Part shown: piece after piece, positions 50,746 to 57,429 of the stretch
How the letters are laid out: each line of letters begins with the position of its first letter
How positions within the stretch are numbered: position 1 is the first letter of the stretch
Source of the DNA: a virus
Lineage: Duplodnaviria > Heunggongvirae > Uroviricota > Caudoviricetes
IMG/VR virus record: IMGVR_UViG_3300046355_000236
Strand: one strand, 5' to 3'
Length of the DNA: 64,000 nt
Translations under genes and position numbers: made by a program
The notes under the pieces: generated by a model
The model's input: the letters and a program-made list of their open reading frames with translations, nothing else
The model's database searches: none
What the model was told of the DNA's origin: nothing

Positions 50746-50819
50746 TGGTGCGGGGTAAGGGAATCGAACCCTTAACTAAACGTTGGCAACGTCTGATTTT
50801 ACCGTTAAACTAACCACGC
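50746..50819 (-). tRNA. tRNA-Gly (anticodon GCC), CCA encoded
   Basis: Hand-folded: acceptor GCGTGGT/ACCCCGC (one mismatch), loop TTGCCAA, T-arm AAGGG-TTCGATT-CCCTT. Confidence 0.7.
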
Positions 50820-50822
50820 ATG

Positions 50823-50846
50823 ATGGCAGGGGATACGTCCCCTGCC
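50823..50846. terminator. hairpin (possible bidirectional terminator)
   Basis: ggcagggga-tacg-tcccctgcc, 9-bp stem. Confidence 0.4.
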
Positions 50847-50851
50847 TTTAC

Positions 50852-52270
50852 TTAGGTCAACGCATAGCGATCGACCATAACTGCCTTAAGCATGATGCCT
50901 TGTGGAGTGAATTGTTCCGTGTTGGAAGACAAGACAGCTTTCACAACTGCTGGGCTAAACCCAGACACAAGCGCCACACCGGACTCGTTTGCCTTTACAG
51001 GTACGTTGTCCTTAGCGTTCAGGTTCCAGAACACAATGGCAGGAACCTTGTAGCCAGCTTCTGCAAACTTACGCTTGATCATCTGCATTGCAGAGTCATC
51101 GTACGTTGCGCACTGGTTGAATTGCATGTCTGACAGGATCAGCAACATTTCTGGCATCTCTGCTTGAGGAACGTTTGCATCTACAGCAGTCTTCAAGATC
51201 TTTGCCATAGCCTTGTTCAGGTTAGTGGACATATTCCAAGAAGACTTAGACATTTGCTGGACCTTCTGAACAATGTTGCCCTTCAAGTGCAACAGCTCTG
51301 GATTGTCAGAGAAAGTCAGGAACGTGTCCTTGAACTTACCCTTGTTCTTATCTGCCAGGTACAAACCAAGCGAGATAGCAACATCCATACAGGTCACAGA
51401 ACCAGAACCACCAGCTGGGCAGCTCATAGAGCCGGAAACATCAACCAAAGGCAGAATGTTTGCATCCCCAACGTAGTTAGGCAGAGCTTCCCATTGCTTT
51501 GCAATGTGATCCAACTCGGTCTTACCGTAGTTGTTAGACATATATCCGTTGCACATGCCTTTCAGCACGTCGTATGGATACACAGCCCCTGCGTTAACCT
51601 TGACGCCTGCTTCGCCCTTAACGAGCTTAGCAACGTATTCAGCAAACTTCGTACCGTGACGAGTAAACGCCTTCTTGTAACGAGCAGATGCTACGGATGG
51701 CACATGGTTGTAGTTAATATCATCCCACTTACCAGCACACATTTGCTGTTCGACCACATTCGTCAGATTAACCAACGACTTACGGTAGAACTTTGGCGAC
51801 ATGCCGAAGAAGGTACGAATCTCTGCGGCCAGAGGGCCTTGACGAGGTGTCCACTTTGCAGCCAAGCCATTCTTCTCACGAAGAGCATCACCTAACATGG
51901 TGAAAGCCTTAGCCTTCAGATCCTTATCTTCAAAAACAAAGATGTCATCCCAGCGACCGATTTCTGGCGTCTTGGCCAGCAATGCTGCTGCAGCATCCTT
52001 ATCGTGCTTTTCCAGATACTTTAGAATCTGACGGTACAACGCACGTTCACCAGATCCACCACGTGCGTCACGTGCCCATTGAGCAATACGCAATGCAACG
52101 TCTTTGTCTTCGACGTATGCGGCTACAAAGTCCTTGGTAATATCCTTACCACGGCTTGCACCGATCTTGAAAAACAAGTCTACACATGCATCTGCAGTGG
52201 ACTTGCGAGCCTTCATACCGTTAGTGGTACGAGCTTCTTGGTTCTTAACAGCTTCTACGAATGTTGACAT
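50852..52270 (-). CDS. Ro60-like protein (TROVE-like N-terminal domain + C-terminal vWA domain with MIDAS)
   Basis: MIDAS VDVSGSMS..; N-terminus TTNGMKARKST..LFFKIGASRG resembles the Ro60 TROVE signature FLCFGSEGG. Confidence 0.5.
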   Translation of the reverse strand: MSTFVEAVKNQEARTTNGMKARKSTADACVDLFFKIGASRGKDITKDFVAAYVEDKDVALRIAQWARDARGGSGERALYRQILKYLEKHDKDAAAALLAKTPEIGRWDDIFVFEDKDLKAKAFTMLGDALREKNGLAAKWTPRQGPLAAEIRTFFGMSPKFYRKSLVNLTNVVEQQMCAGKWDDINYNHVPSVASARYKKAFTRHGTKFAEYVAKLVKGEAGVKVNAGAVYPYDVLKGMCNGYMSNNYGKTELDHIAKQWEALPNYVGDANILPLVDVSGSMSCPAGGSGSVTCMDVAISLGLYLADKNKGKFKDTFLTFSDNPELLHLKGNIVQKVQQMSKSSWNMSTNLNKAMAKILKTAVDANVPQAEMPEMLLILSDMQFNQCATYDDSAMQMIKRKFAEAGYKVPAIVFWNLNAKDNVPVKANESGVALVSGFSPAVVKAVLSSNTEQFTPQGIMLKAVMVDRYALT

Positions 52271-52280
52271 AATGAACTCC

Positions 52281-52400
52281 TTTTCAAATCAACAGGTTAA
52301 ACTTTTTGCTAAGCGGGTGTGCTACCATTACACTACTAGTCGGAATCGAACCGATCCACCTGCGTGGGTTTGCATTAAAGAGATTGCGGAACTTAACCTA
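52281..52400 (-). ncRNA. E1: tRNA-like module (T-arm, then D-arm) inside a 7-bp stem, directly upstream of the Ro60-like gene; Y-RNA (YrlA-like) candidate
   Basis: Minus-strand RNA GCAGGUG-GA-UCGG-UUCGAUU-CCGA-CUAGUA-GUGU-AAUGGUAGC-ACAC-CCGC, flanked by UUUAGGUUAAG ... GUUUAACCUGUU; tail runs into the Ro60-like start codon. Confidence 0.5.
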
Positions 52401-52675
52401 AATTCAGCAGATTGGTTATCATTGAGGCTATCACGGCACTCAGCCAGATTCGGGCTATCTTTATGGTGATTTTTGTACTTGCTGTACCCAATCTAAAATC
52501 AACAGAGTAGTTTCCTTCTTTTTGTTTTACATGAGAACACGAAACTCATGTCTACCATACGTGTTAACGTATACAACCTTCAAAGCCCATACAGGCTCCA
52601 GTTGCATACCACCTTGGTAAGCCGTTACTGGAATTGCTCCCAGTTAGTTTTGTTTGCTGAACCTACTCTAAAAAC
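52401..52675 (-). ncRNA. structured leader with nested complementary motifs
   Basis: UUUUUAGAGUAGGUUCAGCAA at 52654-52675 pairs with CUACUCUGUU about 190 nt downstream on the RNA; several hairpins between them. Confidence 0.3.
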
Positions 52676-52702
52676 TCTCGATGACTCAATTATCTGTGCT
52701 TT

Positions 52703-53227
52703 TCAGATTAGAGTCAACTGTTTAAAAATATCTTCAAGCAAAATAGGTCTAAAATCTGTTTGCTCTACGCAAGCACAGAAGTACCAAGGATCAGGGTTTA
52801 CACCCCACTTGTCTTTGACCACATTTGCGTGCAAGTGACCGTGCACGTTAGCCTTGAAGCGGCCTTTGCTTTCCGTGTGAATGGGAATGTGACTAAAGAT
52901 GACGTTGTTCATCACATGGTAAGCTCTAATGTCCCGAAAATGTTCTGTATATTCTTCGAGACGGAAAATATCGTGGTTACCTTTGATCAGGACCTTGTCG
53001 CCATTCAACCTGCTAAGCGTTTTAAGTGCCTTTCGGTTAATAACAACATCACCCAAGTGATAAACCTTGTCGCCAGGACGAACAGTTTCGTTCCAACGCT
53101 TAATCATTTCTTCATCCATTTCTTCTGGCGTATCCCAGGGACGAAGCTTTGTTCCATCATCACGAAGGAACTTACACACACCGGCGTGGCCAAAGTGTGT
53201 GTCGCTAACTACGAATGTCGCAGCCAT
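52703..53227 (-). CDS. calcineurin-like metallophosphoesterase
   Basis: VVSDTHFGH, GDxxxR and GNHD motifs. Confidence 0.65.
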   Translation of the reverse strand: MAATFVVSDTHFGHAGVCKFLRDDGTKLRPWDTPEEMDEEMIKRWNETVRPGDKVYHLGDVVINRKALKTLSRLNGDKVLIKGNHDIFRLEEYTEHFRDIRAYHVMNNVIFSHIPIHTESKGRFKANVHGHLHANVVKDKWGVNPDPWYFCACVEQTDFRPILLEDIFKQLTLI

Positions 53228-53234
53228 AATAATC

Positions 53235-56338: not shown

Positions 56339-56351
56339 AATAACTCCGTTA

Positions 56352-56425
56352 TGGGGTGAAAGGGGGAATCGAACCCTCGTCAACTGTTTCACAGACAGCT
56401 ATGTTACCACTACACTACTAACACC
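56352..56425 (-). tRNA. tRNA-His (GUG) candidate; acceptor with U.U mismatches
   Basis: Anticodon arm GCTGT-CTGTGAA-ACAGT; T-arm GAGGG-TTCGATT-CCCCC. Confidence 0.5.
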
Positions 56426-56550
56426 ATATAGAAACACTCTGCCAGTGCTTGAACCTGAGGTAGCCCTACTCTTCCTGGCAACGTTCACAGCGTAGTCGAC
56501 TTTGCTGTTACTTGATGAACTCCAGTGTAGCTACTCAAAGTGTTTTTATA

Positions 56551-56625
56551 TGGTAGGGGCACAGAGAATCGAACTCTGATTACATGGTTAAAAGCCACGT
56601 ACTTTAGCCGTTAAGTTATACCCCC
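56551..56625 (-). tRNA. tRNA-Lys (UUU)
   Basis: D-arm ACTT-AACGGCTA-AAGT; anticodon arm CGTGG-CTTTTAA-CCATG. Confidence 0.7.
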
Positions 56626-56900
56626 TCAAGTGCATACCCAGAACCTTCGCGGTTCAGGCTGCGGCGCATTTGTTTATTAGTCTTGCGGTGACTACCAGCT
56701 TTTCTGAATAATGCCAAAGCAACGAACTGGTTACGTTCCTTGGCGATCTGTTTTCGCTTCATCTCGTATTTCCTTATCTGCTTCTTTTAAGCGTTGTTCC
56801 CACTTGCAGTTGATCATCATACAACAATAGCATGACAACAACTTCGTTTTTTTGCCGTTACATTTGACGTTACCGGCTCTTGCTCCATATACAGGTGACC

Positions 56901-57128
56901 TCATACACGAACCCTTTTTGGTGCGCCAATGCGGCTTGCTTTATTCCAATCGTAGGCAACTCCGTCTGGACACTTGCCATCTTTAACACTATCGACACCA
57001 AACTTACCTACTACTTCAAAGTCTGGGCCTTGAATGGTGACAAATACATCTAGTTCTTTAGCATATGACATTGCTGTGTCCAAGCTAGGAAACTCAATCT
57101 TTGTTTCATGCAATATCACATTGTACAT
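56901..57128 (-). CDS. hypothetical small protein
   Basis: Start moved to Met54 because the upstream part overlaps tRNAs. Confidence 0.3.
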   Translation of the reverse strand: MYNVILHETKIEFPSLDTAMSYAKELDVFVTIQGPDFEVVGKFGVDSVKDGKCPDGVAYDWNKASRIGAPKRVRV

Positions 57129-57145
57129 ATTATATCTTTTATTTT

Positions 57146-57219
57146 TGGCAGAGGGAATGGGGATCGAACCCATCTTCCTGCAGTCAAAGTGCAGTGTCAT
57201 CACCAGATGACAATCCCCC
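57146..57219 (-). tRNA. tRNA with UUG anticodon (loop CTTTGAC), imperfect acceptor
   Basis: D-arm GTCAT-CTGGTG-ATGAC; anticodon arm CTGCA-CTTTGAC-TGCAG; T-arm ATGGG-TTCGATC-CCCAT. Confidence 0.5.
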
Positions 57220-57226
57220 AACAATT

Positions 57227-57302
57227 TGGCACCCCGTAATGGACTCGAACCACTGAATGTCGGAATCAAAATCCGATGCCTTACCAACTTGGCGAACGAG
57301 GT
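57227..57302 (-). tRNA. tRNA-Gln (UUG), E. coli-like
   Basis: D-arm GCCAAGTTGGTAAGGC; anticodon loop TTTTGAT, as in E. coli tRNA-Gln. Confidence 0.7.
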
Positions 57303-57429
57303 ATAAACAACAGGATGCGTTTTTCGAAGGCTATGCGCCTTTGCTCGACCACTGAGCGATCTACGCTTGAAGCGTGGAGTTGGATTCGAACCAACGTGTC
57401 GTTAGACATTGCTGTATGCATCCTAAAAC
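57303..57429 (-). ncRNA. E5: permuted tRNA-like module (T-arm, acceptor-like hairpin, D-arm, extra hairpin)
   Basis: RNA: GTTGG-TTCGAAT-CCAAC, ACGCT-TCA-AGCGT, GCTC-AGTGGTC-GAGC, AAGGC-GCATA-GCCTT, tail AAAAACGCAUCCUGUU; flank helix AGGAUGC / GCAUCCU. Confidence 0.55.

Follow-up and report, generated by a model that had tools for sequence, protein, structure and literature searches.

Does a tailed phage carry its own version of the Ro60/Y RNA ribonucleoprotein (RNP)? The question is raised by a 64,000-nucleotide stretch of viral DNA (IMG/VR record IMGVR_UViG_3300046355_000236; Caudoviricetes), hereafter the window, whose minus strand holds a transfer RNA (tRNA) island at 50.7 to 61.2 kb. Within this island, a gene for a 472-aa protein with a von Willebrand factor A (vWA) domain lies beside RNA modules that resemble rearranged tRNAs, and a first-pass annotation, made from the sequence alone, proposed a phage Ro60 (TROVE) protein accompanied by Y RNAs of the YrlA type. 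We consider it likely that the locus is a Ro60/Y-RNA-like RNP system, of a family distinct from the known one: a protein of the DUF2828/DUF7788 family is encoded next to a set of RNA units that share a terminal handle.

By sequence, the 472-aa protein matched DUF7788 (E 4.6e-49) and DUF2828 (E 9.3e-25) in Pfam. Its family in PHROG (850) is labeled "RNA-binding protein," and mycobacteriophage homologs (~32% identical) are annotated by SEA-PHAGES as "Ro-like RNA binding protein"; NCBIfam and PADLOC offered no model for it. The MIDAS (metal ion-dependent adhesion site) predicted for its vWA domain was borne out, with residues D277, S279, S281, T349, and D381 invariant among homologs that are 32 to 84% identical. 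The Pfam vWA_Ro60 model (PF25045) reached 15.6 bits (E 0.016), under its cut-off of 27.7, and a search of PDB sequences with the single protein gave no match. An AlphaFold2 model built from 50 homologs (pLDDT 72.9, pTM 0.70; moderate confidence) displayed the Ro60 architecture, in which a ring-type helical domain of HEAT-like repeats precedes a vWA domain bearing a MIDAS. Foldseek searches with this model retrieved only two significant matches, both full-length and both to the Ro60 protein of Thermus phage phiLo (9kop, E 1.7e-7; 9l5y, E 8e-6; TM 0.53 to 0.56). The first-pass annotation had named a lack of TROVE similarity in profile searches as grounds for abandoning its Ro60 assignment. Such searches indeed returned only DUF2828/DUF7788; therefore, the assignment failed at the sequence level and was recovered only at the level of fold. 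From the modeled structure, we conclude that the 472-aa protein has the Ro60 fold but belongs to a sequence family of its own (PF11443/PF25043). The DUF2828 family comprises 6,208 clusters at 50% identity (E ≤ 0.001), with 710 phage records. It is common in tRNA-gene-rich phages and gut Clostridia, and the literature that mentions it consists mostly of plant papers.

Upon reading every gap between tRNAs, at least 11 RNA units were found on the minus strand of the island (Table 1). They share a handle, or scaffold. Its terminal stem of 7 bp opens with 5' AG and closes with CU 3', after which comes G; the 5' strand bears an unpaired NNN-CAGCAA, and the 3' strand is rich in A. A unit thus begins (U)UUUAG-nnnnn-NNN-CAGCAA and ends (A-rich)-nnnnn-CU-GUU, the nnnnn parts being complementary. 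The stem sequence varies by copy (AGGAUAC/GUAUCCU, AGGUUAA/UUAACCU, AGAGUAG/CUACUCU, AGAAUCC/GGAUUCU, and others), as does the cargo, which may be a short hairpin, a tRNA body in either of two topologies, or another fold. Four units (U8 to U11) are plain hairpins of 57 to 69 nt. Most units have no tRNA-like part; the handle, rather than tRNA mimicry, defines the family. The five modules of the first-pass annotation are all present, and the 3' tail that it saw in them, an A-rich tract followed by YCUGUU, is common to all five. These modules nevertheless form only a subset of the units, having missed the four hairpin-only copies and two more upstream of the gene, and the tRNA mimicry that was taken as their core feature gives way to the terminal stem and ACAGCAA scaffold. 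The units begin 0 to 3 nt plus UUUU after the CCA ends of tRNAs and end 4 to 7 nt before the next tRNA; many stand among the tRNAs, as far as 7.6 kb from the gene. Outside the called tRNAs, T-loop motifs were confined to the minus strand of the island.

Among the units closest to the gene, U3 carries a conserved, multi-helix cargo of 169 nt (CUGGAGC-hairpin-UUUGAAGG). In IMG/VR relatives, homologs of ~165 nt are found 280 to 370 nt upstream of the gene. Their alignment comprised 26 distinct sequences, and no Rfam family matched this type of unit. These homologs, including L016 2420-2586 and L018 6127-6284, have the form CUGGAGC-hairpin-GCnUUGAAGG with a conserved terminal hairpin, and a second unit of ~230 to 260 nt usually lies between the U3-type unit and the gene. 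Relatives L008, L090, and L094 have the AGGUUAA-GUUCCGCAA unit seen as U1, again directly upstream of the gene.

The handle was searched for in two ways. A strict finder required a 7-bp stem, a spacer of 3 nt, C[AC]GCAA, and, farther on, the reverse complement with G-N-U after it. It retrieved 10 units from the minus strand of the window and none from the plus strand; in 80 IMG/VR loci with homologs 70 to 82% identical, it retrieved 219 units on the gene strand and 4 on the opposite strand. A covariance model, R1, was built from 24 short units from the window, six distant phages, and bacteria, all of which have CAGCAA without variation. Run on the window with filters off, R1 placed every match with an E value of ≤1.2 on the minus strand between 52288 and 59926, with nothing comparable elsewhere or on the plus strand. 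At an E value of ≤0.01, it retrieved 151 matches from 89 phage loci (1.21 Mb) and 96 from 80 bacterial and archaeal loci (0.63 Mb). All of these (247/247, in 169 loci) shared the strand of the DUF2828 gene, with no match inside it. At least one unit lay ≤300 nt from the gene in 72 of the 89 phage loci, and 70 matches ended ≤100 nt from the start codon. In most loci, a unit lies ~10 to 100 nt from the gene, and one typically ends ~10 to 20 nt before the start codon. Every locus was collected around a DUF2828 gene, so the constant presence of that gene is in part built into the sample.

In two R1-fitted alignments, the terminal stem was 99.3% and 99.9% paired, values that are inflated because the alignments were fitted to the model and some units were found by a finder that requires pairing. 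All seven pairs showed double-sided changes. Covariation scores for the stem were 0.73 and 0.66, compared to 0.19 to 0.21 in shuffled alignments (0/500 reached the observed value) and ≤0.13 when the 3' partner was slid. Even so, a real helix is supported by the slide controls and by the range of pair types seen.

Handle units are not confined to close relatives of this phage. In 9/9 distant phages examined, they flank the gene on the gene strand, and the 7-bp finder gave only one opposite-strand match in these nine loci, likely by chance; at the gathering threshold, Rfam recognized only tRNAs in them. Units flank the gene in Vibrio phage nt-1, Fusobacterium phage Fnu1, and a Lak megaphage, as well as in Campylobacter phage Los1 and Bacillus phage PJN02. 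Four units lie just downstream, among tRNAs, in a Felix-O1-like coliphage, and three lie directly downstream in mycobacteriophage Krypton555 (mycobacterial cluster L). The units of a Staphylococcus Sextaecvirus are likewise downstream, and Listeria phage LP-048 has three units directly upstream. Contigs of Clostridia (Ruminococcus, Lachnospiraceae, and Oscillospiraceae), Treponema, Synergistales, and Thermoactinomyces have tandem arrays of up to eight units, placed immediately upstream of the gene, and upstream arrays are also present on one Promethearchaeota and one Woesearchaeota contig.

This distribution bears on whether the units act only in cis, either by forming a leader or autoregulatory part of the DUF2828 mRNA or by punctuating the tRNA transcript and marking it for processing. 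Such a role would fit the unit that ends just before the start codon, the way units abut the 3' CCA end of one tRNA and the 5' end of the tRNA that follows, and a promoter-like site that precedes three units and the gene. It accords poorly with units that lie downstream of the gene, as in the Felix-O1-like, Staphylococcus, and mycobacterial phages, or kilobases away among tRNAs, and with tandem arrays of up to eight. The cargo is elaborate and covarying, with whole tRNA bodies included, and the matching RNAs of Dictyostelium (see below) are abundant and independently transcribed. We therefore regard a purely cis-acting function as unlikely.

In part of the bacterial and archaeal loci, the gene is accompanied by RNA repair functions. 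RtcB is encoded beside it on the same strand in 25/80 loci, and a WYL-domain protein is present in 27/80. Other RNA ligases appear in single loci: Treponema locus L107 encodes a different RNA ligase, and Listeria phage LP-048 has both RtcB and an RNA ligase downstream. In a recurrent bacterial gene order, one or two WYL proteins come first and RtcB last, with arrayed handle RNAs and then the DUF2828 gene in between (L141 633-6680; L114, L123, L142, L156, and others); PADLOC has no entry for this order. This arrangement looks like an RNA repair operon regulated by WYL proteins rather than by RtcR. It parallels the rtcR/rsr-yrlBA-rtcBA locus of Salmonella, for which roles in tRNA decay or in the inhibition of anticodon nucleases have been proposed (PMC7790460); there, too, a Ro60 system is found beside RtcB and a ligand-sensing regulator, which is RtcR and not WYL.

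The same neighborhoods raise the prospect that the units are real but serve another partner, such as RtcB, an RRM-type protein, or tRNA enzymes, and that they adjoin the DUF2828 gene through membership in one RNA repair regulon. RtcB and WYL genes do share bacterial loci, many units of the window stand among tRNAs far from the gene, and in Dictyostelium, DdR-21, a Class I RNA, is bound directly by the RRM protein Rnp1A. Units adjoin the gene, however, in phages whose analyzed flanks show no RtcB, and the short distance between unit and gene is kept in most loci, with the reservation on anchoring made above. The Ro60 fold also has precedent for binding terminal-stem RNAs encoded beside its gene. 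On balance, a partner other than the DUF2828 protein seems improbable.

The tRNA-like cargo comes in two topologies. Class P (permuted) units run from the handle through an anticodon-arm-like hairpin, a V loop of 5 nt, the T arm (GGUUCGAAUCC), a loop-closed acceptor stem of 7 bp, U8-A9, the D arm, and N26 back to the handle; the break therefore falls exactly between tRNA positions 26 and 27. The D arm has the consensus GCUC-A..GG.A-GAGC, the T-loop and D-loop nucleotides are canonical, and a canonical CU-NNN-AA anticodon-like loop is present in 11/16 aligned class P units. In class N (non-permuted), which includes U6, the D, anticodon, V, and T elements lie inside the handle, whose stem replaces the acceptor stem; clearer class N relatives of U6 are L001 1010-1103 and L024 5187-5295. 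The first-pass annotation correctly described a T arm followed by a D arm within a 7-bp stem in U1, as well as a loop-closed, acceptor-like hairpin between these arms in three modules (U4, U5, and U7). Its statement that the modules lack an anticodon arm does not hold for U5, which retains an anticodon-arm-like hairpin with the loop CU-GUA-AA. In the 11/16 class P units that keep such an arm, U5 among them, the RNA ends exit at the 26/27 junction and do not take the place of the anticodon arm.

Neither ARAGORN at default settings nor the Rfam tRNA model called the tRNA-like units as tRNAs, and relaxed ARAGORN read U5 as "Tyr gta." Functional tRNAs have an open acceptor stem with a CCA-capable 3' end, which both classes lack. 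The acceptor end of class P is closed by a loop; thus, there is no CCA end, and aminoacylation is not possible. Like circularly permuted tRNA genes, class P units hold tRNA elements in permuted order, but the break at 26/27 is occupied by the scaffold stem, and nothing suggests processing to a normal tRNA.

Decaying or rearranged tRNA pseudogenes, or functionless selfish repeats of tRNA islands, would be expected to lie among tRNAs and to contain tRNA arms, as these units do, and degenerate tRNA-like genes occur in the same island. The class P alignment (A7) had 90% of cells paired, a fully paired T stem (100%), and double-sided changes at 19/28 pairs, with a covariation score of 0.51 compared to 0.16 in shuffles and ≤0.12 when slid. 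Because of this covariation, the tRNA-like cargo is to be regarded as maintained structure. Compensatory changes are seen in every helix, and the handle is kept, always on the gene strand, across phages of Gram-negative, Gram-positive, and actinobacterial hosts and across bacteria and archaea. The pseudogene reading, rejected by covariation, is scarcely credible. The first-pass annotation had looked to conservation and compensatory change in phages such as nt-1 to separate the two cases, and both were found across the loci, with units flanking the gene in nt-1.

How close is this system to Ro60 and YrlA? Phage Ro60 proteins with adjacent Y-like RNAs are already known from 22 phages (Chen 2014, PMC4201824), and the Ro60 of Thermus phage phiLo is accompanied by Yrl1 and Yrl2, with a CGAA motif and recruitment of PNPase (2025, PMC12135203). 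YrlA has a 5' Ro-binding motif, GNCGAAN0-1G, and a tRNA-like domain in the order T arm, closed acceptor, D arm; Ro60 contacts mainly the 5'-strand motif of the Y RNA (PMC4201824). The present units resemble Y RNAs in being encoded next to the protein gene on the same strand and in having a terminal stem, a 5'-strand motif, and a variable effector domain. The YrlA arm order within the terminal stem is found in U4, U5, and U7 and partly in U1, but not in the other units. In contrast, the handle reads NNN-CAGCAA with AG...CU-G stem ends, at the position where Y RNAs have GNCGAA or GGUCCGA; copy number is much higher than in Ro60 systems (at least 11 here, and arrays of up to 8 in Clostridia); and most units lack a tRNA-like part, those with tRNA bodies having them in two topologies, often with an anticodon-like arm.

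A canonical Ro60 ortholog with YrlA-type RNAs, of the kind catalogued for the 22 phages, would account for the Ro60-like fold, for the arm order of some units, and for the SEA-PHAGES label on homologs. It would also be in keeping with weak Rfam YrlA (RF02553) scores, the best of which were 25.1 bits in the window (57309-57424) and, among the related loci, 39.3 bits for a bacterial unit (L149 3731-3842). These scores are far under the gathering score of 69, however, and the protein has no TROVE match in Pfam. GNCGAA is absent from the units, with NNN-CAGCAA invariant in the 24 diverse seeds in its place, and no Rfam 15 family covers them. A canonical system is therefore very unlikely, and of the YrlA likeness first proposed, the arm order stands and membership in the family does not.

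Small RNAs in a phage tRNA cluster are also known from T4, whose species 1 and 2 (rnaC and rnaD) are stable and of unknown function. The 3' part of rnaC (species 1; L170 4909-5047) is tRNA-like, with a canonical T-arm (CCGGGUUCGAAUCCCGG) and, after it, GCGUUUCGUA, but the RNA has no ACAGCAA handle. In the T4 tRNA region, which includes rnaC and rnaD and has no DUF2828 gene, R1 gave no match below E 0.15. With no scaffold match in either RNA and the best regional match (E 0.15) lying elsewhere, rnaC and rnaD were rejected as members of the family.

A close match to the handle came from RNAs of social amoebae; neither this match nor the wide spread of the units over cellular genomes had been noticed in the first-pass annotation. 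Unit U11 (59869-59922) scored 40.1 bits (E 6e-5) against Rfam Dicty_Class_I_RNA (RF01414) over its full length, not reaching the gathering score of 41.5; stem, UU-CAGCAA motif, A-rich 3' strand, and terminal CUG are all matched in the alignment. The same model gave 23.7 bits for U10 (59060-59119) and 32.4 bits in Woesearchaeota locus L115, and it had no match at the gathering score in any distant locus. Class I RNAs are 42 to 65 nt long, with a covarying 6-bp terminal stem, ends AAG...CUGU, and a variable remainder (Kjellin et al. 2021, PMC7919456). Their motif is an unpaired 11-nt stretch, CCUUACAGCAA, in which U at position 3, C at 6, C at 9, A at 10, and A at 11 are nearly invariant (PMC7919456). 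The same study reports them as unique to Dictyostelia, abundant and independently transcribed, and expressed from their own DUSE promoters ~60 nt upstream, with RNA polymerase III inferred from downstream T-runs (PMC7919456).

The units match this description in most respects. Their terminal stem is kept in structure and not in sequence, with compensatory changes at 7/7 pairs. The Class I motif, (C)CUUACAGCAA, lies beside the 5' stem, and its nearly invariant U, C, C, A, and A are kept. Ends of the form (A)AG and CUG(U), an A-rich 3' strand, and a variable interior are common to both; units of the window read UAG-stem-NUW-CAGCAA...stem-CUGUU, and those of bacteria read AAG-stem-UUA-CAGCAA. The plain units resemble Class I RNAs also in size (~50 to 70 nt) and in the presence of many paralogs per genome. 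The differences are that the spacing between stem and CAGCAA is usually 3 nt in the units, compared to 4 nt in Dictyostelium, and that the units are apparently cotranscribed with tRNAs or with the gene, whereas dictyostelid genes have their own DUSE promoters. That promoter and occurrence in Dictyostelia are lineage-specific features, which these prokaryotic and viral loci do not share.

For an independent comparison, a second covariance model, R2, was made from 26 dictyostelid RNAs only (supplement of PMC7919456). In the window and 89 phage loci (1.28 Mb), R2 retrieved 96 matches at an E value of ≤1, compared to ~1 expected, and 95 of these were on the strand of the DUF2828 gene. Fifteen matches remained at an E value of ≤0.01, the best being U11 (31.8 bits, E 5e-5); U10 scored 19.8 bits. 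In bacterial and archaeal loci, 19/21 matches were on the gene strand, one Woesearchaeota unit included, giving 114/117 overall. A sequence-only hidden Markov model built from the prokaryotic seeds scored Class I RNAs weakly (3 to 12 bits), with 15/16 above the 99th percentile of shuffles. Two dictyostelid RNAs, asu_can_20 and ppa_can_99, carry T-arm-like cargo (GGUUCGAnnCC; PMC7919456 supplement). The outgroup candidates ath_can_1 (Arabidopsis) and cow_can_1 (Capsaspora) have a perfect stem and a UUACAGCAA handle (PMC7919456 supplement); the authors dismissed them as isolated (PMC7919456).

The presence of Class I-like units in phages and prokaryotes contradicts the reported restriction of Class I RNAs to social amoebae. 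We propose, tentatively and at somewhat short of even confidence, that handle RNAs and dictyostelid Class I RNAs form one ancient family, perhaps with ath_can_1, whose handle docks DUF2828 proteins, and that together they constitute a second Ro/Y-like class of RNP across viruses, bacteria, archaea, and eukaryotes. An uncharacterized protein, DDB_G0281243, is one of four retrieved in a DdR-21 pulldown. Incomplete dictyostelid proteomes, searched for DDB_G0281243 and for the motifs DVSGSM, SDMQF, FWNL, and GRWDD, yielded no homolog. In the literature outside subscription journals and in Rfam 15, no description of an ACAGCAA-handle family, of its pairing with DUF2828, or of the link to Class I was found; the handle RNA family is apparently distinct and undescribed.

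Several observations weigh against the Ro60/Y-RNA-like reading of the locus as a whole. Pfam gave no match between the 472-aa protein and TROVE (PF05731) at an E value of ≤1, and a profile of 13 homologs searched against PDB sequences gave only weak matches in the vWA region (phiLo TROVE, E 0.13; 1yvp, E 0.45). The alignment used for AlphaFold2 was shallow, with sequences 74 to 100% identical, and confidence in the model is moderate. About 30% of bacterial loci had no unit at an E value of ≤0.01. The bias introduced by a finder that depends on pairing was reduced, not removed, by the model searches and slide controls. Finally, direct binding of a Class I RNA (DdR-21) in Dictyostelium has been demonstrated only for Rnp1A, an RRM protein that is not Ro-like.

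The surroundings of the units are those of a tRNA island. ARAGORN called 31 tRNAs in the window, near the ~33 first estimated, together with a two-piece (permuted) transfer-messenger RNA (tmRNA), and Rfam was concordant. The tmRNA encodes the tag peptide ANDEKFALAA according to ARAGORN and is followed by a terminator-like hairpin (60616-60595). One tRNA has a four-base anticodon and could be a frameshift-suppressor-type or otherwise odd tRNA. Of the two long-arm tRNA-like genes, the one at 54697-54784 was given a Ser gga anticodon by relaxed ARAGORN despite passing the tRNA-Sec gathering score. Degenerate tRNA-like genes, seen only by ARAGORN at an 80% threshold or slightly under the Rfam threshold, are interleaved with the scaffold units, and an encoded CCA follows both of those in 57430-57583. 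A possible twelfth unit (57903-58111) has A, not G, after the stem and was missed by R1; its status as a unit is uncertain.

Among neighboring protein genes, the RNaseH_like gene is conserved in Vibrio phage nt-1 and 16 IMG/VR loci, each time on the same strand. A homolog of the calcineurin-like phosphoesterase lies on the same strand ≤10 kb from the DUF2828 gene in 59/80 IMG/VR loci and in Listeria phage LP-048, and this enzyme is a candidate accessory factor for RNA-end healing. The sigma-70-like site upstream of U3 possibly starts a transcription unit of U3, U2, U1, and the gene. Further consensus matches are at 59237-59209 and 53789-53762; all are matches to the consensus only, and the regional count of such sites is not clearly above that of shuffles. 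NAD salvage genes of this kind are also present in KVP40-like phages. Only NadV and the NMNAT/NUDIX protein were recognized in the window as bearing on phage type, with no structural genes, and the label "T4-like" was not confirmed; no near-DNA relative of the window was present among 50,697 phage records. A protein identical to the 472-aa one is encoded on a JGI metagenome contig of 169,610 bp.

Table 1. Coordinates of the handle units and of other features of the window. R1, bit score and E value with covariance model R1; seed, unit used to build R1. E1 and E4 are names from the first-pass annotation.
Feature	Position	Strand	Remarks
NAD salvage genes: NMN adenylyltransferase/NUDIX protein and nicotinamide phosphoribosyltransferase (NadV-type)	22595-25960	+	
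RNaseH_like (PF04308) protein gene	50257-50739	-	Just downstream of tRNA-Gly and the DUF2828 gene
DUF2828/DUF7788 protein gene, 472 aa	50852-52270	-	Contains VDVSGSMS
U1 (E1)	52291-52399	-	Stem AGGUUAA/UUAACCU, CCGCAA motif variant; tetraloop hairpin, T arm UCGG-UUCGAUU-CCGA, D arm GUGU-AAUGGUA-GCAC, no acceptor hairpin; ends 20 nt before start codon; R1 14.8 bits, E 1.2, weak alone
U2	52406-52494	-	Stem AGAUUGG/CCAAUCU, motif GUA-CAGCAA; small hairpins, no tRNA-like part; R1 24.2 bits, E 0.008 (52403-52497), non-seed
U3	52501-52669	-	Stem AGAGUAG/CUACUCU; first of three units upstream of gene
Sigma-70-like promoter match	52717-52689	-	TTGACT-17-GATAAT; just upstream of U3-U2-U1 and gene
Calcineurin-like phosphoesterase gene	52703-53227	-	Pfam Metallophos_2, E 7e-7
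Degenerate tRNA-like gene	53517-53590	-	
U4	54386-54589	-	Permuted tRNA-like cargo: T arm, 20-bp acceptor-like stem with insert, D arm GCUC-AGUUGGUA-GAGC; partial R1 match
Long-arm tRNA-like gene	54697-54784	-	Missed by default ARAGORN; Rfam tRNA-Sec 50.9 vs gathering 47
U5	54787-54906	-	Permuted tRNA body with anticodon-arm-like hairpin (loop CUGUAAA), then V loop, T arm, closed acceptor stem of 7 bp, and D arm; R1 34.6 bits, E 3e-5 (54784-54909), non-seed
U6 (E4)	54908-55027	-	Non-permuted: scaffold stem (6 bp and one mismatch) in acceptor-stem place, around D-like region and T arm; R1 19.6 bits, E 0.09 (54917-55030), non-seed
Long-arm tRNA-like gene	55099-55186	-	Missed by default ARAGORN; tRNA-Sec 36.7 bits; looks like Ser(UGA)
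Cpn10/GroES homolog	55195-55458	-	Inside tRNA island
U7	57309-57424	-	Permuted tRNA-like: hairpin, T arm, acceptor hairpin, and D arm, plus a further hairpin; R1 25.6 bits, E 0.004 (57306-57427), non-seed
Degenerate tRNA-like gene	57430-57504	-	
Degenerate tRNA-like gene	57509-57583	-	
U8	57591-57659	-	Short form, 69 nt; R1 37.4 bits, seed
Degenerate tRNA-like gene	57745-57823	-	
Possible divergent twelfth unit	57903-58111	-	Stem UGUAAGU/ACUUACA, GU-CAGCAA; T arm inside
tRNA with four-base anticodon	58226-58301	-	ARAGORN: anticodon atac, enlarged loop
U9	58644-58706	-	Short form, 63 nt; R1 43.8 bits, seed
U10	59058-59120	-	Short form, 63 nt; R1 51.5 bits, seed
Degenerate tRNA-like gene	59129-59202	-	
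U11	59867-59923	-	Short form, 57 nt; R1 52.6 bits, seed; best match to Dictyostelium Class I RNA
Permuted tmRNA gene, two-piece	60795-61176	-	Rfam tmRNA_permuted 119 bits

How a Ro60/Y-RNA-like RNP of this kind might work can be outlined by analogy, from which we infer binding of the units by the protein, processing of the RNA, and the biological role. The units would be transcribed within the tRNA island and probably released by tRNA-processing enzymes. The 472-aa protein would then bind the handle, mainly through its 5' strand, as Ro60 does with Y RNA. The cargo may serve as a tether, gate, or decoy for enzymes that recognize tRNA-like shapes; candidate targets are exoribonucleases like PNPase, RNase P, modification enzymes, and anticodon nucleases. 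A phage might use such a system for tRNA quality control, repair, or protection during infection. With one unit ending ~10 to 20 nt before the start codon, where it abuts the ribosome-binding site, the protein could also autoregulate its own translation.

If DUF2828 proteins are paired with handle RNAs, an uncharacterized domain becomes an RNP that can be tested and whose RNA handle is precisely defined, and a second Ro/Y-like system with links to RtcB repair operons is added to the known one. In phages, whole tRNA bodies appear to be set into a putative protein-binding scaffold, where they would be plausible decoys or tethers in conflicts over tRNA cleavage. The match to Class I RNAs suggests what the abundant Class I RNAs of dictyostelids bind. 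If the common origin proposed above is correct, these RNAs would acquire a putative protein partner and, with it, a function in the repair or quality control of RNA, and DDB_G0281243, or another dictyostelid protein, would be predicted to carry PF11443/PF25043.

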